A stretch of 64,000 nucleotides of DNA from a virus: positions 28,564-92,563 of IMG/VR virus record IMGVR_UViG_3300049855_000609; one strand, given 5' to 3'. This document shows positions 14,801 to 64,000 of this stretch, piece after piece. Position 1 is the first letter of the stretch; every line of letters starts with the position of its first letter. Position numbers and translations under genes: made by a program. The notes beneath the pieces are model-generated. The model saw nothing but the letters and a program-made list of their open reading frames with translations, was not told the origin of the DNA and made no database searches.

Positions 14801-17800
14801 CCGGGGACTAAGTTGTCCATGGAAATGATGGAAGATCCGGGAGAAACCATCACTATCTGGGACCAGGAACAGCCACGGGAAGTATCCCTGGCTAAATGGG
14901 TAGCAGAGAGTGGGGGATCTACACAGGATTATGTGGATGATGTTCCTATTTTGGTGAAAGATGAGTCCGGTGAACCTGTTGCCACCATTCCTCAGGTATC
15001 TTTTTTTAAACGAGAATCCTGGGGAAGGGATTTACCTGAATCCATCCGGGAAGCAAAAAGACAGGATGCCATAAACAATGTCCGCAAACTTCGAACAGAG
15101 TTATATGGTGCTCCCTATAAAAAGGTCAGCATAGAGATCACAGAAAGGAATTACGGCACTATGCTTACTTTCCCCGGGAAGGAGAAAAGACAAGTAAGTA
15201 AAGCAGATCCTACAGCTCCTATAGGGGTGAAAAACTCCGGCCCCAGTTTCACTACTACAGAGGGGATCATATCCACAGACCAGATATATAATCCGGGCAA
15301 CACCCTGAAAATATCAGATGGTCACAAATATGAGTTTCGTAAAATGGGGGAGAAAAATGGTAAACCATTCTATTGGGCACAAAGGGTGCACTATGGCAAT
15401 ATCAGCCAGCAGGAAGCCCAGTCTGTTTACTATGCCTGTGCTTCTTATATCTTCCAGGATATCAGCGCGGAGCAAAACCCTAAGGCCAAGGAATTGTCTC
15501 ACAAAATAAAAGACAAAGTAAAAGCTGCAGGAGGAGATGCCGGTATGAATATCCACTGGGTATCTAACCTGGAGACTTACATTTCCCAGTTTGTGGATCT
15601 GTCTAATTTGAGTATTGCAGATGATGAGGCTCTTTTGATAGCTTTACATTCTACTGCAGATCCCAGCCTTTTTAAAACAGAAGAAGAAAAAGAACAAGCT
15701 AAAGCAAGAATAGGAAAACCTTATATCATCACCCAGCATGGAACTATTTTATTTGGAAGGCTTGGACAACAGATACAGGTAGAACAGTATGATAGCAATG
15801 GAGTGAAAAAATGGGTTACTCTTTCTTACCTGGAGAATAACATGAAACTGTTTAAGGTAAGGTCACAGGATACTGCCATACAGGTAAAGAACAAAGGCTT
15901 ATTGCTGGAAGCTTTGCAGAGACTGTTAAATGATACTACGGAAAACGGGTTTAAGCAGGGAATGACCAAAAAGGAAAACCATCTGAAATCAAAGATACCT
16001 GTTTCCCTGATATCCCGTTCTGCGAATAATGTGGTGGATGTTACTACTTATACCGGAACTGATGGTAAAAGTGATTATGCTTCTTATCTGAAGGACACCA
16101 TGTATACAGTACTGGATGCTGTCAATGTGGGAACAAAGGAAGAACCCCGGTTTGTCAGCATGGTGAATAATGAGATCAAATTCAAGGCTTTTGTTCCTGA
16201 GGAAGCCCGGTTAAAAGCTGTACAAAAAACAGAACAGGTGATTGCGGAAGAGGTAAAAACCCCTGAGGGTGTAGCAGACATGTTCACAGAGCAGTACATG
16301 AGGGACCATGGTTACTCTGAAGAAGCTATCAGAAAATTTTTAAGCGGGGATAACTTATATGATGTAGACCTGGAGAACTACAAAAGGGTGACAGATGAGA
16401 TGATGCAACGGGTCAAAAAAAGAATGACCTCCATATCTGATCTGGACTCTTCTGACCGGCAGGAGTTAATCAACTATATTTCTCGTCAGATAGAACAGCG
16501 CTTAGATGGAAAAAACAAAGAGGTGATCTCCCGGGAAGATACCATAGGAGAAGTCACCCACTCTTTTGAGAATATCATACAGCCTAAAATGGATTTCTGG
16601 AGATCGGAGGTCAAGAAGCTGAAAGAGATCCTGGCAGCTAACCCGGCTTCCACCAGACTTCAATACCTCATTGATGATATGGAGTTAAACATCCATAATG
16701 TCATGATGGTCAGAAAGCATTGGAAATCCCTGATGGAAGACGTAGAACTGGAGCTGGAAAGGAATATTAATCTGAAGATAAAGGATTTCTCCGAGGAGTC
16801 TTACTCTAAAACAGCCATGGAAAGAGATCCGAAAAGCTCTGTCAGGCTGATGGTAAAACGTTTTCTTTCCCGGATCCCAAGATATGAGAACGGATACCGG
16901 AAAATAGGCTTCCTTGGTGTAGAGTCTTATCCCGGATTTGACTATTACTTTGATCTCTTGGGAGAAGTGCTTAGTCCTCAGGCTGCAGAACAAGAAGGCA
17001 AAGCTACCAATATCAGTGTCCGGGCAGAGTGGGATGATATTATTGCGCGGTTAAAACAGAACCAGGAGAGGTATCCCTGGATAAAATATCTGTTGGAACA
17101 GCTGGAAACAGCTCCCCAGCAGTTGAAAATACAGTTTACTGTGGGCCTTGCCGGTAAACACAATATCCACCCGGAGTTTGTAATGATCAGCAAACACGGA
17201 ACTGGAGTGTATCTCAGAAGCTGGGAAACCAACTACTCAGATAAGGTAAAGGTAATACGCCGGCAGTGGGAAAGCAACTCCAAAGACATTGATCTGTTCA
17301 CCTATTCTGATGGAGAATACCGTATTAACATTGACCATGCCAAATATCTTTTGGGTCAATACCAGATGTTCCTGAAAAGAGGACTTCATAAACTGAAAGA
17401 AGCTCAGGAGTGGCTGTCAGAGTTTGGTATAAACCTGTCCATGGATGCCATGGAATTCCTTAAAACAGATGGGTACACTTTATTTGATGGGAGTACCCGG
17501 ATGAGGATCAAGGACCTGTTCCCGCAAGCAGAAACAGAAAAGAATAAAACAGCTTTTTCCGAGACAAACAATATCTTTAAAAAGCTGGCCTCTGTGCTTA
17601 CCCTGGCTATAGCAGCTAATGAAGCTAATCCGACAAGGGCACTTTCCATAAGAGAAAGAAAGGACCTGGACCCTTTTGCCGCGGCACATGGCCTCATAGG
17701 AAGGCTGGCTTCTGTAGAAGCAAGGTTTTCCCTGGTAGTATCACCAAATGCTTACAGGGACTCTGGAAAGAATATTTATGCCATTACCCAGAACAAACTG

Positions 17801-20800
17801 GCTTGTCAGCAGGTAGAAGATCTTATCCGTAATGATGAAAGTGGAAAGGCACTGATAGACAGTAAACTGGAGCAGGTATTTGATGGAAAATCCATGATCC
17901 TGAAGCTGATGAAGGAGTCTCCGGAATTTGCTAAAAGCTTCCAGATAAGCCACATCAGCCTGGAGGCCCTGAAAGAAGAAAGACGGGATTCTCCTTTTAA
18001 CATGGAAGTCACCCGGTTATCAGATGCAGATAAGCACATGATGACTATGGGCTTCATGCAAAGCACTACCCAGGGTTCTATTATGGTCTCCGATGAGATG
18101 AAGAAGATCTTCATGGGTATCCCTGTAAGAATGGCCAGGATGCTTCTTCCTACTATGTCAGACAAAGAACTGATGCTGGAGGTGCTTACTGCTATTTTAG
18201 CTCCTAATTCCAATAATTTCCGGGATTTAGAAGGAAATACAGGACTCAGTGATAACCTTCTTCGGCTAATGTACTCCCAAATGGTAGAGCCGGAGCTGGA
18301 TAGGATCATAGACTATCATATCCGCAAGGCCAGGGGAGAACAGTTCAATCAAAAAGACTACGATAAAGCTGCCCAGATATTTCATTTTATCCCGGAAATG
18401 AATAATGTTACCCGGATGGTACATGGGCAAGAGGTCAGGGTGATAGAATATTTGCAGGCCAATGCACACAATATGACTGCAGAGGAGATAGCAAGGGAAA
18501 AACAGAGATTGCAAATAGCCTCTTACAGGAAGATGGAAGATGTAGTTACTGATGAGGTGACCAATGTAGTGCACAACTGGTTCAAATGGGGCTTTGCCGT
18601 ACAGGAGAAAAATGGATCTGTTTCTTTCCCTTATATGGACAAGAACTATGTGAATGATGCCGGGTGGAAAGGTACCTCAGAGGAGAAGCTGATGCACTTT
18701 GCCTATGACTATGTGGTAAATAACATGCTGACCAATGCCAACCACTTCATGATGTTTGCCGGTGATGTAGCCAATTTTGGAAAGGCAAATGCCTTTAGCA
18801 CCAAAGATTTCGAAGACGGGAATCCCACCAGGCCCTTAGGTGATGGCTCTGTTTACAGGATGAACAGTGAGAATATTATTGGCAGAAACGTAGGAAAAAG
18901 GTTGGCCATGCTGATTGCCCCCGGGGATCCCCTGTTCAACAGTGAAAATGACAATTACATACAACTGTTCCTGGAGGATGCTAAAGTAGTGGCCCCTAAT
19001 GCAGAGTACATGATCGATCTGCACTATGAAGGTAAAAGGACAGATAAAGTAAACGAGCTTTTATACCAGGCCAGAAATGAAGATGACAAGAAAAAAAGTG
19101 CCGTGGAAACCTTGTCAAAAATGTTTCCGGACATAGCCAGTTTTTTCAGCATAGAAAATACAGACAGCCAGGAAATGATGACTGCCGGAGAAGCTTTGAA
19201 TGTGGCTTACCGGAGAGGCAATCTTTCAGAAGAAAAATATAAAGAGCTGAAAGGAAAGATAAGAAGACAAAGAGCTGCAGAAAAGGAAGGAAAACCTATA
19301 GCAAAAGCTGATTTCATTTCCCATGAGGATATCAACCTGGTATTCCAGCCACAGAAGCCGGTTTATACAGGATATAAAATGGAAAATGGCAGGACCCGGA
19401 TGGTATACATCAAAACCTCTGCTATCTCTTTACTTCCCCAGTTGACCGGCGCTGATACCCAGCTGTATGGTCTCCGTAGAAAAATGGAGGAAATAGAGGA
19501 CAGTTCAGGGAGAAATGTAAGGGCTGTTTATGTTTCCGGGGCCAAGATAGGTTCTCCACAGAAAGCCTTCTCTGTCTGGAAAGCAAATGGGGATTTTAAA
19601 GAAGATGCCATCAATGTGCAAAGTGTGGTAGACAACCTCAATAGTGGAAATCCGGACTCCGCACTTATTTTACCAAGAAAGTTTTTCCGCATACAACAAG
19701 ATATACCATTTAAATCCCACTATAAAGAAGAAGACCTGACCAAGCTGGGTACACAGATGATGAAGACCATCTTCGGTAACGGAGTTTCAAAAATAAAAGA
19801 AAAAGTCTTCAGCTATAAAGGTGAGATGCTTTCAGGAGAAGAACTCTACAAGGAGTATAATAGCCTGATCGATACCTGGATAAAAACAGAAAAGACAAAA
19901 CTTTACCGGGAACTGGGGGTAGATGAACTTACCGGAAAGCCAAAGAACATGAGAAAATTCTCTGAGAAGCTTCATTCTATGTTGTTGAAAGAGGCCCGGA
20001 AAAGAGATTATCCTTTACAGGATCAGCAGGCCCTGGGACTGGATATAAAAAGAGATGACCTTACCGGAGAAGTTTTAGATGTCCGGTTTACCATTCCTTT
20101 GTGGCTGACACCTAACTCCAACAGATATGAGTCCCTGCTAAACTCTATTGTAGGCAACAGGATGCTGAACCTGGAACTCCCCGGGGTTGGTTTGGTTACA
20201 GCTTCCAGTCAGGGGTTTAAGTGGAAAGCTACTGATGATCTTACAGATGTTCAGAATTTCTCCGACATCATCTGGAGGAAAACCCGGTTCAATGGAGAAT
20301 TGAGGGCCTTTGATACTGATGCCGGCACTAAGGCACAGATACTGGTACCTTCTAAATTTCGTGGCAGAGATGGTAAGCTGATAGATCTTCTGGATCCAAA
20401 AAACGGATACTTTTATGAGGAAGGAGGAAGGAAATTTCTAAATGAAGACCGGATAAAGGCAGAGCTGCTGGAGTCTACCTCTTTCCGTATCCCTACTTCA
20501 GGACATGTGTCTATTGCTTCTGTAGAGATAGTCGGATTTCTGCCTCCACAGAATGGGGATATTATGGTGGTGCCTCCTAACTTTCTTCCTCAAAAGGGAC
20601 TTGACTTTGACGTAGATAAGGAATACCTGTACAACTTATGGCATGCCCTGGATGAAGAGGACAATATTGTTTCCCTGGAAGACGGTATAAAGATGACCTA
20701 CCAGGAAATAGAAATGCTGGAAAAGAACATCAATGATCAGATAGAATCCATGCGGGACTATTACAAGGACAACCAGGAAATGCTCAATGAGATAGATGAA

Positions 20801-23800
20801 TTGAAAACAGATCTGGAAGTCAGGAAGACCCTAAGCTTTGATGGAAAAGAGTCCAAGAAAGCTGTCCGGGAAATACACACCAAGATAAAAGAGCTGAAAG
20901 AAGAATTGCTTGTATTTGGCAATGAGGTATTGGATGAAAAAGTAGGTGGAAAATACTGGGAAGTAAATGATAACCTGAAAAAAGAGATCAAGAAAGCTTT
21001 GACCAAGCTGGCAGAAATGGAAGATTATAAAACCCAATTTCTGCAAAATGACCTGGTTAGAGTATACAGCTCTGTTATGTCTACAAAGGACAAAAGAGTT
21101 CAAAGAAAGATAAACAAGGTGCTGTCTATGGATTTTGTCCGTGACCAGGCTTCTTATATTGAGCAGACAGCTACCGGGAAAAAGACCCAGTTCTCTATGC
21201 TGACTCCCGGATTTCAAACAGAAAAAATGAAACAGGGAGCTGCAGGAAACGGAACCATAGGTGTGTACTCCAACTTCCTGGTAGTACACGGCCTGTCTCA
21301 GCAGACAGAAGCTCCTTTGAGGCTGATGACCAAGATATGGAATGAGGAAAAAGAGAAAATGGAAACGGTCCCTTACAGTCTTGTTATAGGAAAGTTCAAA
21401 TCTGATGGTTACCTGGGCAGAGGTCTTACCCTGGATGGTGCAAGAGATGTCTCTTCTGTTTATGAAGAAAGACAACAGACCTCATTGGATAATGAGAATG
21501 AAGGTATTCTGGGCCGGGTAGGGGTAAGTATGAGTACGATCAATGTAGACTGCATCCTGGTAGGACAAGGATATGACAGGGATACTTTTGAAATAGGGGA
21601 CCTGACAGATGTGAATGTTCAGAAAGAGATCCAGAGTAATCCTTTTGGGGTAATTGAGAAAAATGGAAAAGCTTACAGAGAGGTCAGTATTCCTTACTTG
21701 CTTTTATCTCAGCCACTGGTTAAAAAATATATTCAGGAGGTACAGGATTCAAACTCCATTACCCGGGGATATGAAAAAAATAAAAAGAGAAAGATACTGG
21801 AAAAGCTGATAGAAGAGTATGGTGGACTGGAAAACTTCGAGCTGGCAAAAGAGGATCATATCCGGAGAATGCTTACCGGTGAGAACCTGGCCAGGAACCT
21901 GGAAGGGCTTACAGATAATATGGTACAGCTTTCCGCGCTGGGGATAGTGGAGGAAATAGAAAGACTGTTCTCCAGTTCTATGACCTCTTTACAGCAAAGA
22001 TTGAATATACAGGGGAATGAGCTGGGTATTTCTAATCTGGAAGCCAGGCAGAAATACAAGAATCTCTTCAAGTTCAACAGCAACTTTCCTATCCAAAATG
22101 CTTCTAAGCTGGTAGGAGATTATCTGTCTAAAAAGAAAGCTGCCCAGTTACTTTCTACTGAAGCGGGTAAAGAGCTGATAAGAAAAAATGGATTTATCAT
22201 CCTGGAGTCTCCTGTTCCTGGAGAAAGAGAGGTGGTAATGAGGCCAACTTCATTCTCCGGTTCCCTGATGGTATATGCACCAATAGCCAACAAAGAGCTT
22301 TGGGATAATTTCTTTCCTTATAAGAGTGCTGTAGTGGAGGAGTCTGTTACTGCCCTGCTGAATATTTTCGGTGGTGTGAAAAAAGGATCAGACATCAGTG
22401 ATAAATCCATACTGGATACCACTTACCTCATCATGGAAGAGATGAAAAAATACCTCAACTCCAGTGAGGATCTGGGTACTTTCTCCGGAGATCCACAAAT
22501 GCAAAGGGCCAGGCTTACCATATCGGATGAGAATAATGTCTCTTTACCTAAATACATGCGGGAATTATTCAGCATGAACAAAGAGGGCCTCTCCGTAGAA
22601 GAATCCAAGGGCCTTGACATGGTAAAAAACAATAAGGTCACCTCCCGGCTATTCTACAATTTTGATAAGGGAGCTCCTTCTACCCTGAAATTTGATAATA
22701 ACCGCGGGGAAGACTCCAATGAGTCTTATAAATACCAGGCTATAGTGGAATTGCTGGAGAAGAATTTACCACTGCCGGCTTGGAATAAACAGCCTTATAC
22801 TACCCGGCAGCTGGGCATAGACCTGATCAGCTATGCTTACCTGGAAGGAGGAGTGCAGAAAGCTATCCAGTACATCAAATACATTTCTATACCTGTTCTG
22901 GAAGAGATCGGGTATGCTACCACTTCCCGGAAATGGCAGGAAGCCATAGTCTATGGAGATGAGCATGTCATAGAAGGTCTTTTTGGTGGCCAGGGATATT
23001 ACTCCAATCTGGCAAAGCAGGTGGTACAGCATAACCCCGGAAAGGTAAAATACCAGCTGACCAAAGAACAGATCACAAATACAAAGGATGTGGAAGGTAA
23101 ACCTTCTGTGATCCTTGGAAATACAAACAGTTTTGTTCCGGAAGAGTTTTCCTTCATTGAAGATGATATGGTAGAACCTTATGCTACCATATACAATGAG
23201 CTGGGTACTGGCCGGGATAAGCTGATGCTCTTTCAATGGGATATGGAAAACAGCCGGTATACCAGGATCCCTACTTTCAACTACTTTGGGATGAGCCAGT
23301 ATTCCATGAAGACAAACCATGTGACTCCACTGACTGAAGTCAGATGGACACCGGTGAAGCCTTCTTCAGGACAGGTGCTGCCTACAGAAGATAATACAGA
23401 TCGGTCTTCTTTATTTGAACTGGGTACCGGGGATGCTATTAAGATCCTGGATGCCATTGCTAAAGCTGATTTTGGGACCACCTCTTTTCTGGCTTCTTAT
23501 ACGGCAGGTTTTGTAGACAAGACCCTCAAAATAGATATAGTAGATGAGACTAAAGAGGGAGATACTCCTTTCAGAGCTGTCTACAATCCAAGCAGTAACA
23601 CCCTCAGGATAAGCCGTAAATTCCTCAATAACCATAAATATTCCCCGGAGGAAATAGCTTACACGATAATGGAGGAGATGCTCCACTCTGTTATGAGCAG
23701 GGAGTTGATCAAGTACTTTGATGCAAAAGGAAAACTCCTGGTCCCGGAACAGTATCTTCCTCCACATATACTCCGGTTACACCGGCTTTTACTGGAAACA

Positions 23801-26296
23801 CAATCTTTCTTTGAAAAGATGCCACAGGAGCAAAGAGATGCCCTTTTTGGAGATGATATTTCGAAGGAAACCCGGGATATGCATGAAAGAGAGCTGTTTG
23901 TTTACACGCTGGGTAACATACATGAGTTTGTAGCCAAGATCCTGGCTAAGCCTCATATTCGGGAAGCCATGTCAAAAGTGCCCTATAAGAAGACAAATAT
24001 GAGCCTTTTGGAGAGGTTCTACCAGATCTTCCAGGAGTTCTTAGAGAAAGCCGGCATGAAGTTCGACAAGGATACAGTGGCTTTCCATGCTGTAGCAGAG
24101 ATATTTTCCTGGCTGGAGCAGAACAATGGAGATACTGTACAAAGTAATTCTATACAGGAACAGGTAAAAACTGCTCTCAGTAACAGCATCCTGACAGTAG
24201 AACAGGAGCTGGAAAACCGGAGATTAGAAGCAGAAGAGTTCCGCAAGAGCCTGAAAGGGGCACAGCCTACAGTAAGACAGAAAAAGGAATTCATCGTTTC
24301 CAAGCTGGAAAATGGAGAGGAGATCTTAGGGACTATTCAGCAGGGGTTCAATGGAGGATATGATTTCGTGGACAAGAAAGGCTCCCGGGTAAGGTTCTAT
24401 AATCACTCCGGGAATATTACCCAGGAAGATTACAATAAGACTGTGAGATTGGTACTGGCCCCTGAAGTGAAAGCTGAAGACGGGAAAGTTTTCCGTGATG
24501 TGATACAAGTATGGGCAGGGGATAAATTCTTTGGCAATGTACAGGAAACAGACTGGAAAGAAACTCCTGCTGTTGATCTGCTTAAAAAAATAGATCTGAT
24601 TGAAACCCGCATAGCTAATGGAACAGCTGATCCCCAGGAGTATAAGGATCTGGATGAATACCGGAAACAATTGGGTATGGCTCCCAGATATGGGATAACA
24701 GGAGCTAATTTTGAAACTCAAAGAGAGCAATTACCAAAAGATCCTACCGACAAACTAATCTATGTATTTGAAAAGCTGGGGAAGAAAAATGTAGATAAGA
24801 TTCTGGAAGGCAGAGATGAAGATGGAAATGCTGATTATTTGGTAGCTTATATTCCGGATAACATGACCAAAGAAGAATTTGAAAATACGGATCTTGATGA
24901 GTTTGAATTTGAAGATGCTACTTATGATACAATTATGCGTCTTTTAAAAGGAGTAAAAAAGTTTAACGGAACTGCAAGCTTTTATATAGAAGAGGCTATT
25001 TCTGACCCTGATAATTATAGGTCTATTGCTGCAGAAAATTTTCTTTTACAGATAGCAGATAAAATAAATGAGATCAACCCAACCATACTAAACCCTGATC
25101 AAGGGAGTTTATTTGACCGGGCTTTACCTGAAAAAAGGGATGATTTCCTTTTTGATGTGGATATGCCTGAAATGGGGGCTGCCTTGGAGATCGTTTATGG
25201 TCAGTGGCCTGGATTGGAACAAGAACTCCCTAAAGAAAAGTATATGGAATGGGTTAACACTATCTGGCCGGACTCCTATGTGAAAAGGGTGGTCTATCAT
25301 GGAACAGGTTCAGATATAGAAAAACTGGAACCTTCTCCTAATTCCGGGCTTATCTTCTTCGCGGCTAATCATGAATACAGTGCTGTTTACGCTGAGTGGA
25401 GAAAACAGAATTTGGAGCATGAAAAGTCTTGGAGGAAAGAAACTGCTAAAGTATATGACTTTTGGAATAAAGCTTTATTCCGGACAGATGTAGATGCTAT
25501 TCCTGCACAAATGCTGGTGGATGAGACTATTGATGTTTTACTGAAATACAAGAAAGAAACTCCTGAACGGATATTCAAGGGCCTTTTTGGTGATCTTCCT
25601 TCTAATTTAGTTGAGTTACAAAAAGAGATCATAGAGAACTACAATGAAAAGCAATTTATATGGGATAACGGGGATGAAGATGTTGCAGACTATGAGGACT
25701 ATGTAGAGATGCAGGAAAGACAAAACTGGACAGAAGAACAGTGGCAGGCTTCTTATATAGCAGAACAAAAAGAACTGGAAAAAGAGGCTTTTGTTTATCA
25801 AAGGGATAAGGAAGAAGTATACAGACTGATGAGAAAGAATTTCTATAAATTAGAAAATCAGATCAATGGCCCGGCATACAAGAAGGTAAAAAAATATTTT
25901 GAGGTTCCGGCAAAAGCTAAGGTGCTTCCTGTACTTTTAAATGTAAAAAACCCACAAATAATTGATGAAGAGATCACCACTTACAACATAACAAGTGGTA
26001 TTATCCCTATAGATCCTGCAGCAGATGCCATAATAGGAAAGGATGCTCCTTTATATGCAGACTCTTTTACCGGCAAGGATTGGAAAGAAGAAGAGGTTTT
26101 TGTGATCAAGAACCCGGATCAGATATATTACTTAGGATCCCCGGAGGATATAGCCATGGCCAAGCAGTTTGCTAATGGCAATAAATACATCTCCGTAAAT
26201 GACCCTACTCTGTTCTCTGATAATGTGGAAGATGTGGCTGAAGAGGAAAAATTAAGCTGGAAAGACCGGGAAAATAAAACAGATTGTCCGTTTTAA
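11843..26296 (+). CDS. Virion-packaged DNA-dependent RNA polymerase polyprotein with zincin-like and ART-like domains
   Basis: 4817 aa. FRIPTSGH...QKGLDFDVDK (DxDxD at 20603-20617), plus KRL....APG, TDSQ and QQD motifs of crAss-like RNAPs; EEMLH...HEFVA zincin-like segment; C-terminal VYHGT...LNVKNP ART-like domain. Confidence 0.9.
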   Translation: MAGTKSEVVTEKGQKTAVEVMNDLMKGTADTPKPVVKTTEPPVLSAVDVMNKLMRGESVEVKSPATSGFLSADAPVSTSSTGHTPDLQKKLEEGMDISNDIDNYYINKAHDQSFVEQSLLTTGRMVSNFLYGAVSAAGSTLDMIDTPMMLTGVIKEYGNILGDAAKSAQEWEEEKYPIYKKDPNTTILSGGLLDPGWWGNIMVGVSHSAGIWGESVAATLGAGALTGPTGYLAGIGAGIKAMKSAKGLSNILKVAKNSDQIRRSIMLSTALRGMNELQMEGVDSYHQVYKGMIDKGMSHEEAVKYASVAAANTARLNLPKVALDLLQAKLLLVNPMSGSTEGLLESFLGKLPTKIGTPTKWIANMGGESFEEYYQAIAQNESVYKAEMMAGLTPKTTLGERLKKYNRDGNTWDAAFSGAVGGLVLGKLQQSFQKWGEGKGIKDLRSEQEKFVQNMSAGMTLEMVEKISQAVQEGKPEKAKALLRDLSEHKAITATHLDALTDRDTAFNSYMTYLDKTIEAAEKGDMDALEGLIVPGMDLQDVKERFKVYREDALAIKELYDNNTEKHSREAVVPITRLEYDIKRLGEEQKTFPARLAAEKANIADYDSLSTIGKQLYDLHAERAAKSVKGLPVEDLTQAINTLTQTLTPEQKAQDQKILNSISWNNGYTRTVDAQIANQKALDNKRENLILWKDSKYQEMSVEQKDEKLIRDAKSLKELDAIRIALATQKRLTQNKRNMIGEKRKNLLLEEKDKPASLTASPTVPAFVANPATITPLAPDAFDTANTTNSIPSVEDTTTTATAIPSPSPANTSMTQPTVEELSAILNQAIEQGVQEEDEDSDDIFDTDAIPEKEFRDKMKTLVKKRVEELTAELGHRPSFTEFFQDFVDKTSEQKGDQHFEALKTAWLDNGYPKVNFDAIRNAISRSKVTFSELLGTLDQQSGEVVQQPASQEAAGVESVLYDTKLYPLPEGHKNRYKIDDFTKYKPGTKLSMEMMEDPGETITIWDQEQPREVSLAKWVAESGGSTQDYVDDVPILVKDESGEPVATIPQVSFFKRESWGRDLPESIREAKRQDAINNVRKLRTELYGAPYKKVSIEITERNYGTMLTFPGKEKRQVSKADPTAPIGVKNSGPSFTTTEGIISTDQIYNPGNTLKISDGHKYEFRKMGEKNGKPFYWAQRVHYGNISQQEAQSVYYACASYIFQDISAEQNPKAKELSHKIKDKVKAAGGDAGMNIHWVSNLETYISQFVDLSNLSIADDEALLIALHSTADPSLFKTEEEKEQAKARIGKPYIITQHGTILFGRLGQQIQVEQYDSNGVKKWVTLSYLENNMKLFKVRSQDTAIQVKNKGLLLEALQRLLNDTTENGFKQGMTKKENHLKSKIPVSLISRSANNVVDVTTYTGTDGKSDYASYLKDTMYTVLDAVNVGTKEEPRFVSMVNNEIKFKAFVPEEARLKAVQKTEQVIAEEVKTPEGVADMFTEQYMRDHGYSEEAIRKFLSGDNLYDVDLENYKRVTDEMMQRVKKRMTSISDLDSSDRQELINYISRQIEQRLDGKNKEVISREDTIGEVTHSFENIIQPKMDFWRSEVKKLKEILAANPASTRLQYLIDDMELNIHNVMMVRKHWKSLMEDVELELERNINLKIKDFSEESYSKTAMERDPKSSVRLMVKRFLSRIPRYENGYRKIGFLGVESYPGFDYYFDLLGEVLSPQAAEQEGKATNISVRAEWDDIIARLKQNQERYPWIKYLLEQLETAPQQLKIQFTVGLAGKHNIHPEFVMISKHGTGVYLRSWETNYSDKVKVIRRQWESNSKDIDLFTYSDGEYRINIDHAKYLLGQYQMFLKRGLHKLKEAQEWLSEFGINLSMDAMEFLKTDGYTLFDGSTRMRIKDLFPQAETEKNKTAFSETNNIFKKLASVLTLAIAANEANPTRALSIRERKDLDPFAAAHGLIGRLASVEARFSLVVSPNAYRDSGKNIYAITQNKLACQQVEDLIRNDESGKALIDSKLEQVFDGKSMILKLMKESPEFAKSFQISHISLEALKEERRDSPFNMEVTRLSDADKHMMTMGFMQSTTQGSIMVSDEMKKIFMGIPVRMARMLLPTMSDKELMLEVLTAILAPNSNNFRDLEGNTGLSDNLLRLMYSQMVEPELDRIIDYHIRKARGEQFNQKDYDKAAQIFHFIPEMNNVTRMVHGQEVRVIEYLQANAHNMTAEEIAREKQRLQIASYRKMEDVVTDEVTNVVHNWFKWGFAVQEKNGSVSFPYMDKNYVNDAGWKGTSEEKLMHFAYDYVVNNMLTNANHFMMFAGDVANFGKANAFSTKDFEDGNPTRPLGDGSVYRMNSENIIGRNVGKRLAMLIAPGDPLFNSENDNYIQLFLEDAKVVAPNAEYMIDLHYEGKRTDKVNELLYQARNEDDKKKSAVETLSKMFPDIASFFSIENTDSQEMMTAGEALNVAYRRGNLSEEKYKELKGKIRRQRAAEKEGKPIAKADFISHEDINLVFQPQKPVYTGYKMENGRTRMVYIKTSAISLLPQLTGADTQLYGLRRKMEEIEDSSGRNVRAVYVSGAKIGSPQKAFSVWKANGDFKEDAINVQSVVDNLNSGNPDSALILPRKFFRIQQDIPFKSHYKEEDLTKLGTQMMKTIFGNGVSKIKEKVFSYKGEMLSGEELYKEYNSLIDTWIKTEKTKLYRELGVDELTGKPKNMRKFSEKLHSMLLKEARKRDYPLQDQQALGLDIKRDDLTGEVLDVRFTIPLWLTPNSNRYESLLNSIVGNRMLNLELPGVGLVTASSQGFKWKATDDLTDVQNFSDIIWRKTRFNGELRAFDTDAGTKAQILVPSKFRGRDGKLIDLLDPKNGYFYEEGGRKFLNEDRIKAELLESTSFRIPTSGHVSIASVEIVGFLPPQNGDIMVVPPNFLPQKGLDFDVDKEYLYNLWHALDEEDNIVSLEDGIKMTYQEIEMLEKNINDQIESMRDYYKDNQEMLNEIDELKTDLEVRKTLSFDGKESKKAVREIHTKIKELKEELLVFGNEVLDEKVGGKYWEVNDNLKKEIKKALTKLAEMEDYKTQFLQNDLVRVYSSVMSTKDKRVQRKINKVLSMDFVRDQASYIEQTATGKKTQFSMLTPGFQTEKMKQGAAGNGTIGVYSNFLVVHGLSQQTEAPLRLMTKIWNEEKEKMETVPYSLVIGKFKSDGYLGRGLTLDGARDVSSVYEERQQTSLDNENEGILGRVGVSMSTINVDCILVGQGYDRDTFEIGDLTDVNVQKEIQSNPFGVIEKNGKAYREVSIPYLLLSQPLVKKYIQEVQDSNSITRGYEKNKKRKILEKLIEEYGGLENFELAKEDHIRRMLTGENLARNLEGLTDNMVQLSALGIVEEIERLFSSSMTSLQQRLNIQGNELGISNLEARQKYKNLFKFNSNFPIQNASKLVGDYLSKKKAAQLLSTEAGKELIRKNGFIILESPVPGEREVVMRPTSFSGSLMVYAPIANKELWDNFFPYKSAVVEESVTALLNIFGGVKKGSDISDKSILDTTYLIMEEMKKYLNSSEDLGTFSGDPQMQRARLTISDENNVSLPKYMRELFSMNKEGLSVEESKGLDMVKNNKVTSRLFYNFDKGAPSTLKFDNNRGEDSNESYKYQAIVELLEKNLPLPAWNKQPYTTRQLGIDLISYAYLEGGVQKAIQYIKYISIPVLEEIGYATTSRKWQEAIVYGDEHVIEGLFGGQGYYSNLAKQVVQHNPGKVKYQLTKEQITNTKDVEGKPSVILGNTNSFVPEEFSFIEDDMVEPYATIYNELGTGRDKLMLFQWDMENSRYTRIPTFNYFGMSQYSMKTNHVTPLTEVRWTPVKPSSGQVLPTEDNTDRSSLFELGTGDAIKILDAIAKADFGTTSFLASYTAGFVDKTLKIDIVDETKEGDTPFRAVYNPSSNTLRISRKFLNNHKYSPEEIAYTIMEEMLHSVMSRELIKYFDAKGKLLVPEQYLPPHILRLHRLLLETQSFFEKMPQEQRDALFGDDISKETRDMHERELFVYTLGNIHEFVAKILAKPHIREAMSKVPYKKTNMSLLERFYQIFQEFLEKAGMKFDKDTVAFHAVAEIFSWLEQNNGDTVQSNSIQEQVKTALSNSILTVEQELENRRLEAEEFRKSLKGAQPTVRQKKEFIVSKLENGEEILGTIQQGFNGGYDFVDKKGSRVRFYNHSGNITQEDYNKTVRLVLAPEVKAEDGKVFRDVIQVWAGDKFFGNVQETDWKETPAVDLLKKIDLIETRIANGTADPQEYKDLDEYRKQLGMAPRYGITGANFETQREQLPKDPTDKLIYVFEKLGKKNVDKILEGRDEDGNADYLVAYIPDNMTKEEFENTDLDEFEFEDATYDTIMRLLKGVKKFNGTASFYIEEAISDPDNYRSIAAENFLLQIADKINEINPTILNPDQGSLFDRALPEKRDDFLFDVDMPEMGAALEIVYGQWPGLEQELPKEKYMEWVNTIWPDSYVKRVVYHGTGSDIEKLEPSPNSGLIFFAANHEYSAVYAEWRKQNLEHEKSWRKETAKVYDFWNKALFRTDVDAIPAQMLVDETIDVLLKYKKETPERIFKGLFGDLPSNLVELQKEIIENYNEKQFIWDNGDEDVADYEDYVEMQERQNWTEEQWQASYIAEQKELEKEAFVYQRDKEEVYRLMRKNFYKLENQINGPAYKKVKKYFEVPAKAKVLPVLLNVKNPQIIDEEITTYNITSGIIPIDPAADAIIGKDAPLYADSFTGKDWKEEEVFVIKNPDQIYYLGSPEDIAMAKQFANGNKYISVNDPTLFSDNVEDVAEEEKLSWKDRENKTDCPF

Positions 26297-35322: not shown

Positions 35323-35574
35323 TTAGTCCCAGATTTGAGTGATCTCCCTTTTAAAAGGATTGTATTCCACCTGTTTTCCCAGGCTCCAGTTCCCCGGCAG
35401 TACCTGTAAAGGCTGGTGCTCATTGGAGAACTGGCCGAGAGGGGTTTCATGCTTCAGCACAGAGTTGTCTTCCACCAACAGGTCAGTTTCAGAGAGATCT
35501 GTAAAATCTCCATAGAGAGTGTGCTGGTTGGTGCCTTCTCCTTTGAGGAGGACTTTTTTGTTTTGCTCTTTCAT
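35323..35574 (-). CDS. Small His-rich protein of the family that usually partners DUF6745
   Basis: LLKGEGTNQHTL...LKHE.....EH..L....G.W....QVEYNPF; likely start MKEQNKK. Confidence 0.6.
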   Translation of the reverse strand: MKEQNKKVLLKGEGTNQHTLYGDFTDLSETDLLVEDNSVLKHETPLGQFSNEHQPLQVLPGNWSLGKQVEYNPFKREITQIWD

Positions 35575-55904: not shown

Positions 55905-56595
55905 AGCACCCTCTTTCTTATCCTTTCCTGCGATTAAATCCAGGAGCCTCACAGACATTATAAGCCTGCCTTCCTAAGAGTAGGGTCACACAATGATGGG
56001 AAAACCAACGCTACTATTGAGTCTGCCTTCCAGGTTACATAATTCCACTCTTAACCCTTATCTTATACCTCAATCGCTTGACATCATTATTTGCCGAGAA
56101 CTCATTTGTGTTATATCAGATTATTGATATACCCTTTCGGGTTCTCCCCCTCTGGTTGGGAAAACTTTAAAGTCCTTTCTCAAGGGACAACAACACATAC
56201 AGACTTACATCTGTAATCTTTATGTAAATTAGAGCAAGACAAACTCTACTGGACTAATCGTAGATTTATAGTTACTTGACCTATTATGTGGTATTTCCAA
56301 AGCCCACCACTAACTTACAAAGGTATTCAATGTTTAACCTTTTATGTAGACTATAGAGGCTAAATACGTTAGCTTATAATCACTTCACTTTATTTTTAAA
56401 AAGAACTGACTGTCACCTCCAGATTGTGTGAATAATACGCAGTAGCCTTCTGTTTTATACAGCTTATTTAATTTCCTCATTTATCCCTCTATGAACAACT
56501 CCCTTCTGGTTGGGATTATAACAATTAACCCTACATACGTTCTTATGGTTGTAAAGGATATTTCGAGTTATTCGTTCACTTCAGGCAGTCAGCCT
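55905..56595. ncRNA. Putative structured non-coding RNA cluster
   Basis: No ORF of 60 aa or more; successive stem-closed domains; repeated motif ccc(c/t)tctggttggga at about 56147 and 56501. Confidence 0.4.
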
Positions 56596-59570: not shown

Positions 59571-59666
59571 CTTTTAAATTAGTTTTTTGAGTTACTCAAT
59601 ATTGAGTTAGACTTGTATCTGATATACAACTCTAACCCAAGGGACTGTGTCCCGTGAGTATGCACC

Positions 59667-59747
59667 TTAACTGGCATTGTGCAGAATGAATTCTGCTCCT
59701 GCGGCCAGCATCATACTGATGTGCATCAAGTACTGATCCCTTTTCAT
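59667..59747 (-). CDS. Putative 26-aa peptide
   Basis: MKRDQYLMHISMMLAAGAEFILHNAS* with an AT-rich leader. Confidence 0.3.
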   Translation of the reverse strand: MKRDQYLMHISMMLAAGAEFILHNAS

Positions 59748-59769
59748 GTGACAAACGGTTAAAGGTTAA

Positions 59770-59883
59770 TTAATCAATTTCATACCCTCCATCATCTTCC
59801 GATAATGGTTTACTCTCGTTAGCTATCTGCATGATCCTGTATAAACAGAATACCGCTATGGCTGTCATCCCAAATGTTAGCAT
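59770..59883 (-). CDS. Putative 37-aa membrane peptide
   Basis: MLTFGMTAIAVFCLYRIMQIANESKPLSEDDGGYEID*. Confidence 0.4.
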   Translation of the reverse strand: MLTFGMTAIAVFCLYRIMQIANESKPLSEDDGGYEID

Positions 59884-59914
59884 ATATTGGAAGTTTGATT
59901 TCAAAATAAAGGAA

Positions 59915-59952
59915 CTAACCGGTGCTTTAGTGACATTCATACCACCGGTTAG
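59915..59952 (-). terminator. Intrinsic terminator
   Basis: Stem ctaaccggtg / caccggttag followed by a T-rich tail on the - strand. Confidence 0.65.
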
Positions 59953-60126
59953 CCCTTGTTTATTGCGTTTGCTCTAATTGGCTACCTTTACAGGCCCGCA
60001 ACAAATCCATTGCCACAACTCTTTCTCACCGTTTGTCTTGAATACCGAAGTTCCCGATATTCGTCTGCATGGCCAAAATTCGTGGGGGGTTTCAAAGAGT
60101 AGGAGGGTAGACGGTAGAAGAAAAAC

Positions 60127-60164
60127 CCTGACAGACCACCACTGTAAATGGTGTATCTGTCAGG
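60127..60164 (-). terminator. Intrinsic terminator upstream of motif copy 1
   Basis: Stem cctgacaga / tctgtcagg plus a T run. Confidence 0.7.
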
Positions 60165-60333
60165 TTGTTTATCCTTTATCTGTATTTATCTTTGAAAAAA
60201 AACACCGGAGACGCTTTTACCTGTCCCCGGTGCTGAATCATACTATCCAAACCACCTTTATTAATTTACCTACTGATACAGTATTTTACAAGAGCTTATC
60301 CTTGTGGTAGTGGTTCCTGTCGTCATAGCACAA

Positions 60334-60606
60334 TTATACTTTTCTGCTGAAGAAACTCTTTACCCGGCTGGCTGCAGCCATCAGCTTGTTTTTCATACGA
60401 GCCAATATCCCGGTTTTCTCTTTGGCTTTGCCAATTTGCGGAATAGGTTTCTCCTGGGCCATCCTGGCAAAGGATTTGGCTACCCGGATACGGGTATTTA
60501 TCTGGCCACTGCCCATCCACCTTACTCTGCCGGAATTGTCTGCTACCGGTTGCAGGCTCTTATTGCCTTTAAGCATCTTTCTGGTTTCTGAATATGCAAT
60601 ACTCAT
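60334..60606 (-). CDS. Basic hypothetical protein
   Basis: 90 aa, Lys/Arg-rich. Confidence 0.55.
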   Translation of the reverse strand: MSIAYSETRKMLKGNKSLQPVADNSGRVRWMGSGQINTRIRVAKSFARMAQEKPIPQIGKAKEKTGILARMKNKLMAAASRVKSFFSRKV

Positions 60607-60621
60607 TTTATCCTCCTTTTT

Positions 60622-60906
60622 TTAAAAATTATTACTGATATTGTACGGATCCTTGTGATAACCTATGCTGTACTTTATGGTCTTATAACCACTCTGCCAA
60701 TAATCCCTGAAACCAGGACTCTCTTCCCATCCCAGGTCAAAATAAAAAGCCGCATCTACAGTCTCTATGTCAGAGTCTGTGATATTGGTAGTCTTCCATA
60801 TTACCCGGGTAGCCATAGCAAAATTACACCACCCCATAAATGCCGGGGTTAACAGCATAAACAGCAGGATGATCACCGGCCATTTGTAATTAATTACCTT
60901 TTTCAT
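60622..60906 (-). CDS. Hypothetical membrane-anchored protein
   Basis: N-terminal hydrophobic helix. Confidence 0.55.
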   Translation of the reverse strand: MKKVINYKWPVIILLFMLLTPAFMGWCNFAMATRVIWKTTNITDSDIETVDAAFYFDLGWEESPGFRDYWQSGYKTIKYSIGYHKDPYNISNNF

Positions 60907-61153
60907 ATTTGTCTGGTTTTGTGCCGTGGTATATGCACACGACTAAGTTAAGAAATAATGAGTAACTGACTGTTTGGTTTAAAATGTATATTTCCATAAA
61001 ATTGGTTTTGGTTCATAGGTACAACCTAAGCTGTACCTATGAGCCGGGAGATATACTCCCAACCCAATCTTAATAGTCGTTTACTGTTATCAGCTTTAAT
61101 TAACTCATATCGATGAATGGTTACACGGTCTATTAAGTTTTGGCTATTAAATG

Positions 61154-61429
61154 CTATCTGCCTACCCAGTTGTCTTCAAAGTCTATTTCATCTCTCATCT
61201 CTTCTGTTATCTCCATATCTACACTCATCTGGGCCATATCACCATTTAAACTCGGCCAATAGCCTACTTTCCAGCTCTTCAGTATCCCCTCTGCCTCCAA
61301 TTTCCGGATCCTGGCCTCTTCTGCCCTGACCAGCATCTTTAATGTGTTCCGTAAATGGGTAATATCCATTTTGTCAATGTCTATTTTATTCCCATCTCGC
61401 ATTGTCCAGTATACTTTGTTCCCTAACAT
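61154..61429 (-). CDS. Hypothetical phage protein
   Basis: W..RDG..I....M...HL.N...ML motif common in phages. Confidence 0.7.
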   Translation of the reverse strand: MLGNKVYWTMRDGNKIDIDKMDITHLRNTLKMLVRAEEARIRKLEAEGILKSWKVGYWPSLNGDMAQMSVDMEITEEMRDEIDFEDNWVGR

Positions 61430-61758
61430 GGCTTTTTCTTTTTGGCTATTTACACAATATTGTGGTTTTTGCTACTTTCTGTTATTGCAGGTTATAGGGT
61501 AAATGGGTCCTAAACAGCTTTTTCAAGCCTGTTTTATCATCCATAACCCTGTCATAATCAATAATTTAGGGTGCTATAATTCGTGGGGGGCTTCAGGGGG
61601 TAATTGGTAGAGTAAAAGTGGTAGAGAGTGAGGTAGAGAGGGGGCAAATTTGGGGGTTTCAGCCAGTATTTTTTATCTGGAGGGCTGTTTTCAACTCTAT
61701 TTTGGTCACTCAGGCTTATCTGGGAGGGGTTTATCTTAAAGAAAGCCGAAAAAAAGGA

Positions 61759-61784
61759 AACAGACCCCGGTTAGGGGGCCTGTT
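61759..61784 (-). terminator. Intrinsic terminator
   Basis: Imperfect stem aacagacccc / ggggcctgtt plus a T7 tail. Confidence 0.7.
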
Positions 61785-61796
61785 CCTGGATCAGGA

Positions 61797-62135
61797 TTAG
61801 AATTTCAGCCAGTAAGCCTTCATTGGTTTACCGAAGTTCTTGCTCTCTTCCCTGTCACAGATGTAATCTCTGCAATCACAGTTTTCTTCCGGGACATATT
61901 CAGCTGGGATTTGGAGGATTTCACCCACAGTTGGAGGTGTGCAATCCAGATCCACGCTGTAATGCCGGTATGTGAATACAGGTTTTGTGCTTGTACCCAG
62001 TCCCATAGGCAGGATCTTGACCACGGTTTCCGTGTTCAGGATAGATACATTGTACACAGGCTGGTGTTTCGTACCAGGAGACGGGTTTGAAATCGAGACT
62101 TTCTCGACCACAAACGGGATTGTGTTGTTATTCAT
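61797..62135 (-). CDS. Hypothetical protein (paralog of 63768-64000)
   Basis: Likely start MNNNTIPF just downstream of motif copy 3. Confidence 0.7.
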   Translation of the reverse strand: MNNNTIPFVVEKVSISNPSPGTKHQPVYNVSILNTETVVKILPMGLGTSTKPVFTYRHYSVDLDCTPPTVGEILQIPAEYVPEENCDCRDYICDREESKNFGKPMKAYWLKF

Positions 62136-62226
62136 TTTGTATAAATGTCCCAAACTCGTGGGGGGTTTCATCTGGGTATATCTGGTAGACGGCAGCTGTT
62201 ATCTGTAGATGGTAACAGAAAAGGGA

Positions 62227-62247
62227 TGCAGGCATTATCTGCCTGCA
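62227..62247 (-). terminator. Intrinsic terminator
   Basis: Stem tgcaggca / tgcctgca. Confidence 0.65.
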
Positions 62248-62253
62248 CTGTCC

Positions 62254-62541
62254 TTAATTCTTGGGAATGTAGATCTTAGTCCCGGATTCTACAATAATGT
62301 AGTGGCCACCTTTGGGGCCTACTTGCACCGGATACTGTTTCCCCTTGTATGTAGCCGTATTACCGGCAACTACAGGTTTAACTGTGGAGGAAATGTACAC
62401 TTTACCAGTTGGGGTGAGGATGTATTTTCCTCCTTTGGGTCCTATTTCCACTTTATAAGTGGTACCCTTATAGGTATAGGTAGTCTGGCTGAAACCTTCC
62501 AGGCACAATATGGCCAGGATAATGAACAAGTACTTTTTCAT
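62254..62541 (-). CDS. Secreted protein with two GPKGG basic-adaptor-like repeats
   Basis: Signal peptide MKKYLFIILAILCLEGFSQ; two copies of YKG..Y.V..GPKGG.YI. Confidence 0.7.
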   Translation of the reverse strand: MKKYLFIILAILCLEGFSQTTYTYKGTTYKVEIGPKGGKYILTPTGKVYISSTVKPVVAGNTATYKGKQYPVQVGPKGGHYIIVESGTKIYIPKN

Positions 62542-62620
62542 GATCAGTGATTTTGATTAAGGCAGTATTGCCCCAAATACGTGGGGGGCTTCACAAGAGG
62601 GTAGCTGAAGAGAGAAAAGA

Positions 62621-62639
62621 GCAGGCCATTACAGCCTGC
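62621..62639 (-). terminator. Intrinsic terminator
   Basis: Stem gcaggc / gcctgc plus TCTTTT. Confidence 0.6.
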
Positions 62640-62644
62640 ACTTG

Positions 62645-62866
62645 CTACACATAATGGGTTACCTCCCTAATACGGAATTTGAAAGTAGCCTCATTAGGGT
62701 ATGTTACCCGGAACTCGGTATCATTGAGCCAGACTATTTCAGCCTCTGTTGCCCCCCATTCCTTTACCTTTTCTATTACATCCTCCTCAAAGTCAAATAC
62801 TCCCAGTACTTCAGCCCCATATTTTCCTTCTCTGGTCAATACCAGTTTCTTTCCTGCATTTTCCAT
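62645..62866 (-). CDS. Hypothetical protein
   Basis: 73 aa, between motif copy 5 and a terminator. Confidence 0.65.
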   Translation of the reverse strand: MENAGKKLVLTREGKYGAEVLGVFDFEEDVIEKVKEWGATEAEIVWLNDTEFRVTYPNEATFKFRIREVTHYV

Positions 62867-63067
62867 AAATAGATTGATTTAGCAGTTAATGACAATATCG
62901 TCAAAAACTCGTGGGGGCATTCACTGCCTGGAGTATCCCGGTAGATGGTAAAAGGAAAAAAGAAAGGAGGGTTTTCAGTAGTCGGAGAACTCCAAAGGTT
63001 TCCCCTCGTGCTCCCCTTCCAATAGGGTTTCTTTTAAGATGAAACCTGTTTTCCTAAGAAGGATGCA

Positions 63068-63098
63068 CAAAGCTAAAGTTTTCCAGACATACTGTCAA
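63068..63098 (-). promoter_or_regulatory. Host sigma-type promoter
   Basis: - strand TTGACA-17 nt-TAGCTTTG; the latter matches the Bacteroidota -7 box TAnnTTTG. Confidence 0.6.
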
Positions 63099-63138
63099 TA
63101 CCACTTTACTAACATTTTGACTTAACTTATAAACAAAA

Positions 63139-63165
63139 AACAGGGAGCACTAATGGCTCCCTGTT
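63139..63165 (-). terminator. Intrinsic terminator
   Basis: Stem aacagggagc / gctccctgtt plus a T run. Confidence 0.8.
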
Positions 63166-63172
63166 CTCTGGA

Positions 63173-63487
63173 TTAGAGGATGTTCTCATCTACGGCCTCT
63201 TCTTCGGGTATCCTGTAGGCATCCCAGTTCTCCTTCAGGATATTGGCAATCAGGCTCCGGGTGTTGATGAAGTTGAGGGCAATCTGCTCAGCTTCCTGTA
63301 CTTTGCGGTTATCCCTTGCATCCTTCAGCTCATCAATGAGTTGGCTGATGATAGCATAAGGAGTAGCCCCTGATAAGGACCTTGCCAGGAGTTGCAGGGC
63401 CATCTTGGCAATACCTGCAGGCATGAGTGCTAATGGTTGGTCTTCCACAGCTTTGTTGGTGGTGAAATCAAATTGAATGTTCTTCAT
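63173..63487 (-). CDS. Hypothetical helical protein
   Basis: Likely start MKNIQF downstream of motif copy 6. Confidence 0.65.
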   Translation of the reverse strand: MKNIQFDFTTNKAVEDQPLALMPAGIAKMALQLLARSLSGATPYAIISQLIDELKDARDNRKVQEAEQIALNFINTRSLIANILKENWDAYRIPEEEAVDENIL

Positions 63488-63596
63488 GGTAAATGCATTT
63501 AATAATAAGGAAAGTGAATGTCTAAAATTCGAGGGGGGATTCATCTATAAATAGGAGAGAAAAAAGGAACAGCACTGAGCTGTCCCTACTGCTGGG

Positions 63597-63668
63597 CTAT
63601 ACCTTATCCCATTCCAGGAAATCCTGAAATGACATCAGCATGCCACAGTATATAACTGTCCTTTTCAT
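63597..63668 (-). CDS. Putative 23-aa peptide
   Basis: MKRTVIYCGMLMSFQDFLEWDKV*; the only ORF found between motif copy 7 and the hairpin at 63569-63583. Confidence 0.45.
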   Translation of the reverse strand: MKRTVIYCGMLMSFQDFLEWDKV

Positions 63669-63730
63669 AGGTCACACTATTTAAGGATGATTGCAATATT
63701 GCAAGAATTCGCGGGGGGTTTGAAAACAAA

Positions 63731-63756
63731 GAGGGAGCACCCTAAGATGCCCCCTC
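63731..63756 (-). terminator. Intrinsic terminator
   Basis: Imperfect stem gagggagca / tgccccctc plus TTTGTTTT. Confidence 0.6.
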
Positions 63757-63767
63757 CTTTACCCCTG

Positions 63768-64000
63768 CTACCACTTGATCCAGTGGCACTTGAAGGTTCT
63801 GCCGAAGTTCTTGCTGGATTCATCATCCACCAGGAATTCCTTCAGCTCACAGTTCTCCTCTGCCACATGCTCAGCAGGGATATCCAGTACTGTGCCCACT
63901 GCCGGAGGTGTTGCCGCTTTCCCCTCTGCATCCACCATATCCTGGTAGAAGTAGCGGAATGTCGGGATATTATCCGTGGTGGTGCCTAACCCGGCAGGCA
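63768..64000 (-). CDS. Hypothetical protein, C-terminal part (paralog of 61797-62135; missed by the ORF track)
   Basis: PAGLGTTT...FRYF...TPPAVGTVLDIPAEHVAEENC...SKNFGRTFKCHWIKW*. Confidence 0.75.
   Translation of the reverse strand, partial: PAGLGTTTDNIPTFRYFYQDMVDAEGKAATPPAVGTVLDIPAEHVAEENCELKEFLVDDESSKNFGRTFKCHWIKW

Follow-up and report, generated by a model that had tools for sequence, protein, structure and literature searches.

A strand-specific C-rich motif at the head of the replication arm of a crAss-like phage is a probable early promoter and a candidate target of its virion RNA polymerase

The IMG/VR virus record IMGVR_UViG_3300049855_000609, obtained from freshwater sediment, represents a crAss-like phage whose genes are arranged in two divergent arms. 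We examined a 64,000-nt window of this record (bases 28564-92563 of 92,563 nt; hereafter the window), in which a short C-rich motif recurs on the minus strand at the head of the arm that encodes the replication genes. From its position, strand and surroundings, we judge with a probability of roughly 85% that this motif is a phage-specific early promoter, of which the phage carries eight minus-strand copies at the arm head. Which polymerase would read it is a separate question, and here the sequence evidence gives slightly better than even odds to an injected crAss-type virion RNA polymerase.

Results

Eight clustered copies of one motif

A previous sequence-only reading of the window had listed seven copies of the motif, and all seven are present on the minus strand, with the T of TGAA at 60094, 61595, 62170, 62593, 62923, 63543 and 63723. 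An eighth copy, TGAAACCCCCCCTCGAATACTGG, which contains seven C, was found on the same strand at genome position ~292, where the circular junction places it immediately upstream of the window end. All eight copies therefore share one strand and are confined to 4.1 kb where the replication arm begins. The conserved block is about 25 nt, longer than previously described, and can be written TGAAnCCCCCCaCGAaTTTtGG.CAT with a CAT-like end; an invariant G sits 16 nt beyond the first C of the C run. When up to two mismatches were allowed, nine hits were obtained against 1.33 expected, a number reached by none of 100 shuffles; two extra hits in this search, at 35449 and 41526, were rejected as noise. 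A weight matrix derived from the copies scored the eight sites at 25-41 bits, whereas the next best site in the 92.4-kb genome scored 9.8 and shuffled sequences scored 8-16. This whole-genome scan, which found only the eight clustered copies, bears out the earlier impression that the motif is missing from the other 60 kb of the window. The exact 17-nt form of the motif gave only single chance matches in IMG/VR, spread over 25 contigs, and a search for an inverted repeat common to the copies found none.

The eighth copy depends on the topology of the record. A 127-nt terminal repeat (window 63874-64000, identical to genome 1-127) closes the record into a 92.4-kb circle, and the two arms diverge around genome position 300-780. 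Since 127 is the largest word length in a common assembler, the repeat is as long as an assembler word overlap, and the record probably represents a circularised assembly with an arbitrary break point.

The anatomy around the copies is regular. Seven of them are preceded by a hairpin with a T run, as the sequence-only reading had noted for most copies, and the first is preceded by the divergent intergenic region. Because this first copy has no gene upstream, the motif cannot be a terminator accessory. A terminator scan listed four terminators on the minus strand of the array, and the folded hairpins before the copies at 63723, 60094 and 61595 have z scores of -3.7 to -4.2. On the other side of the motif, the distance from ACG to ATG is 20-43 nt in six copies and ~140-150 nt in two, so that the proximity to start codons noted before for five copies (about 17-38 nt) extends to six. 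The pentamer CTACC, previously said to lie often upstream, occurs eight times within the 50 nt upstream of the eight copies, where 0.44 occurrences would be expected (Poisson p ~2e-8); five of the eight have it. The description of the units as monocistronic applies to about six of eight, as two units run through several genes.

Conservation in Flavobacterium phage FpV4 and uncultured relatives

Flavobacterium phage FpV4 and 34 relatives in IMG/VR carry the related element tCAAAACCCnCACTnATTTnnAG at the same place and in the same orientation. The 34 IMG/VR loci, 539 kb in total, were gathered through a neighbouring 218-aa (amino acid) protein with 37-44% identity, and a matrix applied to them yielded 69 sites, every one of them on the gene strand. 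These sites cluster upstream of the gene for the 218-aa protein, usually with one site 1.3-2.5 kb ahead of it. A repeat search in FpV4 independently yielded TTCAAAACCCTCACTTATT, present in five copies in 88 kb, all on the strand of the early arm and at the arm head. The family consensus can be written (CC)-N6-tCAAAACCCnCACTnATTtnnAGnAtTA; across the family, the n of CCCnCAC is T, C or A. Compared with this consensus, the window phage has one C more and one base fewer in the T-rich part. Despite the differing interior, AAACCC and the invariant G are spaced 16 nt apart in the window phage and the relatives alike. The comparison with whole genome and relatives that had been suggested as a check thus gave a family-wide conserved element. 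We did not find a paper describing the motif in our literature search.

The motif also keeps company with a polymerase-type gene: all five of the complete relatives tested have a polymerase-type open reading frame (ORF) of 4344-4681 aa with a DFDxD signature, together with 3-7 clustered copies on one strand. Among the relatives, G003 gives the strongest polymerase match (E 1e-134), and its motif variant, CCCCCAC, is also the closest to that of the window phage. An apparent lack of the motif at locus L051 proved false, as its genome has three copies ~12 kb away, outside the stretch first considered.

Several further features were seen in the relatives. The upstream-most copy, of the CCCCCAC form, is embedded in an imperfect palindrome, TGTGATCCT...AGGATTACA, and a second C run comes after it (examples are L037:14-60, L054:4830-4880 and L059:5630-5680, among others); this palindromic first copy may have a special role, for instance as an operator, an origin or a genome end. 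In FpV4, the copy at record position 83708 heads ~2.3 kb without an annotated gene (record 81439-83767; L034:11440-13768), a candidate long non-coding RNA region like those of the window. In relative L041 (4238-5957, plus strand), three paralogs of a 90-91-aa protein each stand ~23-25 nt behind a motif copy of their own; they had no PHROG family match, and the 91-aa protein of the window is common to this relative. The 112-aa protein of the window, itself one of a pair of paralogs, was considered as kin of the 90-aa paralogs of L041, an idea rejected when no relationship was found.

RNA from the array

Metatranscriptome contigs from sediment match units of the array at 100% and are thus identical to the phage. 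Their depth is zero over the DNA polymerase gene, 5-47 over units of the array and ~600 over an ORF-free cluster, and this very uneven depth speaks for RNA, and against contaminating DNA, as the source of the contigs. One contig, 59665-60065, runs into sequencing adapter at 60065, which is 16 nt past the ACG of copy 8. Five such adapter joints were found, all of one polarity; in the usual strand-specific library, joints of one polarity fit minus-strand RNAs. Neither the motif copies nor the terminators are covered by RNA contigs, and missing contig cover was not used as evidence.

The most abundant phage RNAs come from ORF-free clusters (55939-56585 and from 57713), with depths of ~600 and ~370 compared with 5-77 for genes; adapter-joined ends were seen here at 55939, 56585 and 57713. 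These abundant ORF-free RNAs recall the abundant early non-coding RNAs of phage phi14:2.

The candidate polymerase

The plus-strand arm encodes terminase, portal, major capsid protein, the crAss muzzle protein and a protein of 4817 aa, whereas the minus-strand arm runs from small genes of unknown function and ORF-free stretches to RadC, a family A DNA polymerase, a helicase and a PD-(D/E)XK protein. Hallmark genes of the group were confirmed with Pfam (crAss_MUZ, 2e-21) and with PHROG families for major head, portal and terminase proteins. A giant ORF containing a single DFDxD, with V or I at the fourth position, has been used to recognize crAss virion polymerases (bioRxiv 10.1101/2020.03.07.982082), and the 4817-aa ORF contains a single DFDVD, at residue 2921 (nt 20603-20617). 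In tblastn searches its catalytic region matched the 'putative RNA polymerase' of Kehishuvirus (25% identity over 87% of the query, E 9e-14), and also the annotated RNA polymerase catalytic subunits of crAss002 and Carjivirus. The best matches are in Flavobacterium phages of the FpV4 type (31% identity); a phmmer comparison with the sequence of the solved phi14:2 structure gave no direct match, searches of IMG/VR with peptide patterns taken from the polymerase revealed no near relative, and blastn of the region against the phage collection gave no match. That the protein is located in the virion is suggested by the annotation of phrog_16227, and of the FpV4 record, as 'virion structural protein'. 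We regard the 4817-aa protein as a candidate reader of the motif, with its packaging and injection being putative.

These observations can be arranged into a possible mechanism. In each unit the motif is followed by a leader of ~13-35 nt and then by either a small gene of unknown function or non-coding sequence; most units end in an intrinsic terminator, and five carry a pyrimidine-rich CTACC stretch ahead of the motif. A two-barrel RNA polymerase within the 4817-aa virion protein, injected with the DNA, would read the motif and start transcription at the invariant G 16 nt after the first C or a few bases past it, and so might express the first genes independently of the host enzyme. The same element, of equal overall length and with the consensus tCAAAACCCnCACTnATTTnnAG, heads the same arm in FpV4-type Flavobacterium phages and in uncultured relatives. 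As to the proposal in the sequence-only reading that the motif is the promoter for the virion polymerase, the promoter part is upheld by position, strand, the order of terminator, motif and gene, and conservation across the family, but the assignment to this polymerase is a best guess. That guess is based on the mismatch with the host consensus, on the lack of enrichment in the host family, and on the analogy with phi14:2, whose early transcription is resistant to rifampicin. There is an even chance that the element is the first promoter of a crAss-type virion RNA polymerase to be given a defined consensus, as a contiguous element of ~30 nt with a core close to that of the T3 promoter.

Alternative readings

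The start-site map of Flavobacterium psychrophilum defines a sigma-A box, TAnnTTTG, at -12 to -5 with a TTG at -33, a variant named SM5 (TAnnTTGY), and an extracytoplasmic function (ECF) type, SM6, with CGT at -10 (PMC9723704). It had been claimed that the motif does not resemble TAnnTTTG, and this holds only in part: the 3' half is T-rich and in some copies matches nAnnTTTG, and short leaders come after it, as in sigma-A promoters. We consider it unlikely, but worth weighing, that the host RNA polymerase reads the motif, with sigma-A or an SM5-type factor taking the T-rich half as its -7 box. The C-rich half would then be an upstream element of the phage family, and a phage factor delivered in the virion or made very early might bind it in place of the -33 contact. 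Such a reading draws on GAATTTTG of copy 8, which fits nAnnTTTG, on TAATTTGT of the relatives, which has the letters of SM5 at -12 to -5 of the conserved A, on the CC/CTACC element near the expected location of the -33 box, and on the fact that the host polymerase transcribes late genes of crAss-like phages. However, a sigma-A promoter should have the -33 TTG and the -7 TAnnTTTG ~19 nt apart, and the TTG is missing at the right place; moreover, in the family matrix the A at position 9, supposedly a free position, reaches 98% and the G of TTTG only 36%, unlike the sigma-A box (PMC9723704). Most of the information lies in the invariant block CAAAACCCnCAC, which is outside every host promoter class in that map. 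Nor does the motif have the layout of SM6 (a -35 AAC box, a spacer of ~16-17 nt and CGT at -10), because GAAAC and CG are 6 nt apart and the relatives lack CGT. The strict consensus gave three single hits in 596 Gb of bacterial genomes, and hits to a looser form in 301 Flavobacteriaceae genomes were about as frequent as those of a reversed-pattern control and never clustered, so that the motif is not enriched there. Furthermore, canonical host-type promoters in the same genome look unlike the motif, and no sigma-70 domain was found encoded in the genome; a Sigma70_r2 match in the giant protein (13 bits, E 0.007) was rejected as chance, as a Pfam search with the excised part gave none.

Two other explanations have less to recommend them. 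The family consensus contains a 12-base stretch identical to the core, AACCCTCACTAA, of the T3 promoter AATTAACCCTCACTAAAGGGAGA, and all 14 annotated promoters in the T3 record contain (A/T)ACCCTCACTAA, which would suit an undetected single-subunit RNA polymerase of the T7/T3 type. This is highly improbable, since the flanks and the start region differ, the GGGAGA start 3 nt past the core (CACTAA in the 23-nt T7/T3 consensus) is missing, and the window phage has CCCCCCACGAA in place of the T3 core. Also, when T7 RNA polymerase, the N4 virion RNA polymerase, its polymerase domain and both N4 RNAPII subunits were searched with phmmer at maximum sensitivity against all six-frame ORFs, the best E value was only 0.47. 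Pfam RNA_pol likewise matched neither the genome nor the large virion proteins, although in the genome search the controls were silent as well, making that result uninformative by itself. We also give little credence to the motif being the binding site of a phage regulator or recombinase, that is, an operator or unit-shuffling site, with weak host-type signals nearby as the true promoters. Recombination between units had been raised as a possibility in the sequence-only reading, and the relatives do differ by whole units; one mosaic boundary is found 28 nt ahead of a motif copy, two array units encode paralogs, and the first copy of the relatives stands within the palindrome described above. 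The boundary is a weak point in its favour, as the remaining breakpoints do not coincide with motifs. The strand bias of 69:0 and the fixed distances to the conserved G and to the gene start also speak against such a site, a recombination site would need no single orientation relative to genes, and PHROG and Pfam searches of the small array proteins revealed no recombinase.

Returning to an early promoter read by the virion polymerase, several observations weigh against this interpretation. The T-rich 3' half resembles a -7 or SM5 box at a plausible distance from the start, and the motif is confined to the first ~4 kb of the replication arm. The weight matrices were built from the same sites that they score. 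The adapter-joined end at 60065 comes from one contig in one study, and a similar end at 56585 has no motif upstream, so that adapter ends need not be start sites and the end at 60065 is only a hint. Finally, the purified phi14:2 polymerase transcribed single-stranded and denatured DNA (bioRxiv 10.1101/2020.03.07.982082), and the motif is absent from the first 12 kb of phi14:2.

Comparison with known systems

One parallel is phi14:2, in which the virion polymerase transcribes the early genes, this early transcription resists rifampicin, and a common motif upstream of the early transcripts was not found (bioRxiv 10.1101/2020.03.07.982082). Its gp66 polymerase shares with the window phage the DFDxD with V or I at the fourth position, and the two phages share the layout of gene arms and the abundance of early non-coding RNAs. 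The promoters of coliphage N4 are DNA hairpins read by a T7-like enzyme. As proposed for the window phage, N4 has a small set of phage-specific promoters, all in one orientation, where its early region begins by a genome end, and its small early genes are driven by a polymerase within a giant virion protein (PMC4496689). Unlike N4, the window phage has no conserved inverted repeat or short hairpin in its motif and no detectable T7- or N4-like polymerase, and its candidate enzyme is of the two-barrel type. Thermus phage P23-45 offers another likeness, as its gp96 is a two-barrel virion polymerase fused to a giant protein, and a short motif that is kept in polymerase-bearing relatives precedes its pre-early genes at one genome end; that motif is AT-rich and is accompanied by a special 26-nt terminator motif, (PMC10770324), whereas the window phage has a C-rich core and ordinary terminators made of a hairpin and a T run.

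The crAss-like phages are among the most abundant viruses known, and the recognition target of their injected RNA polymerase has so far been left open; the only biochemical study, of phi14:2, found neither an early promoter motif nor promoter-specific initiation on double-stranded DNA (bioRxiv 10.1101/2020.03.07.982082). A family-wide, strand-specific element provides a concrete template for in vitro transcription, footprinting and structural work. If the proposed reading is correct, a two-barrel polymerase, or a partner carried with it, would recognize a sequence like that of an unrelated single-subunit enzyme, and, with both FpV4 and its host F. psychrophilum in culture, direct tests could be made of how such injected enzymes locate promoters in double-stranded DNA. 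The motif would also mark the immediate-early gene set, whose products, non-coding RNAs and small proteins of unknown function, probably serve host takeover, and could help to annotate early regions of metagenomic relatives.

Features of the array

Table 1. Features of the motif array and the candidate polymerase gene (genome coordinates are marked as such; lengths in amino acids refer to encoded proteins).
Feature	Position	Strand	Details
Motif copy 1	genome ~292, beyond window end	-	25.1 bits; heads 120-aa ORF
First-unit ORF (120 aa), 3' part	63768..64000; start at genome 257 across circular junction	-	
Terminator of unit 1	63728..63759	-	14-bp stem and T run, ends 4 nt before copy 2; -23.8 kcal/mol, z -3.7
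Motif copy 2 (TCAAACCCCCCGCG)	63698..63723	-	32.0 bits; heads 23-aa mini-ORF 63597-63668
Terminator of unit 2	63565..63587	-	terminator scan
Motif copy 3 (TGAATCCCCCCTCG)	63518..63543	-	39.7 bits; heads 104-aa ORF 63173-63487
Hairpin and T run after unit 3	63131..63166	-	read from sequence only
Host-type promoter TTG-N20-TAGCTTTG	63068..63098	-	heads ~110 ORF-less nt with T-rich end
Motif copy 4 (TGAATGCCCCCACG)	62898..62923	-	33.1 bits; heads 73-aa ORF 62645-62866
Terminator of unit 4	62621..62639	-	terminator scan
Motif copy 5	62568..62593	-	35.3 bits; heads 95-aa ORF 62254-62541, signal-peptide-like N-terminus
Terminator of unit 5	62226..62248	-	terminator scan
Motif copy 6	62145..62170	-	40.5 bits; 112-aa ORF 61797-62135, ATG 21 nt past ACG
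Terminator of unit 6	61757..61786	-	terminator scan and folding, -23.2 kcal/mol
Motif copy 7	61570..61595	-	30.7 bits; long leader, then 91-, 94- and 90-aa genes; three CTACC upstream
Terminator of unit 7	60127..60164	-	17-bp stem and TTTTT, then two CTACC, then copy 8; -25.2 kcal/mol, z -4.2
Motif copy 8 (TGAAACCCCCCACGAATTTTGGCCAT), last of the array	60069..60094	-	40.8 bits
4817-aa protein with crAss-type RNA polymerase module	11843..26296	+	phrog_16227 'virion structural protein', E 8e-233

The paralogous pair noted above consists of the 112-aa ORF behind copy 6 and the 120-aa protein of unit 1, which share 40% identity (E 3e-18). Copy 8 is followed by ~130 nt without an ORF, a 56-aa ORF and then the gene for the 218-aa protein, which belongs to phrog_16309; apart from this assignment, comparison of the small array proteins with PHROGs and Pfam returned nothing informative, and Rfam and tRNA scans of the array region found nothing.

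The canonical Bacteroidota promoter consensus is also used in the phage genome. Within the array, it appears in the sole unit without the C-rich motif, which has no ORF. Outside the array, a textbook example, TTG-N21-TAAATTTG (genome 9647-9685, plus strand; L073:3647-3685), stands 7 nt before the ATG of a gene that is flanked by those for portal and major capsid protein. In crAss-like phages the late genes are transcribed by the host polymerase (bioRxiv 10.1101/2020.03.07.982082), and a host-type promoter before the capsid operon agrees with this. Elsewhere in the window, one further RNA contig, 50133-50621, has a depth of 42 and an adapter-joined end at 50133.

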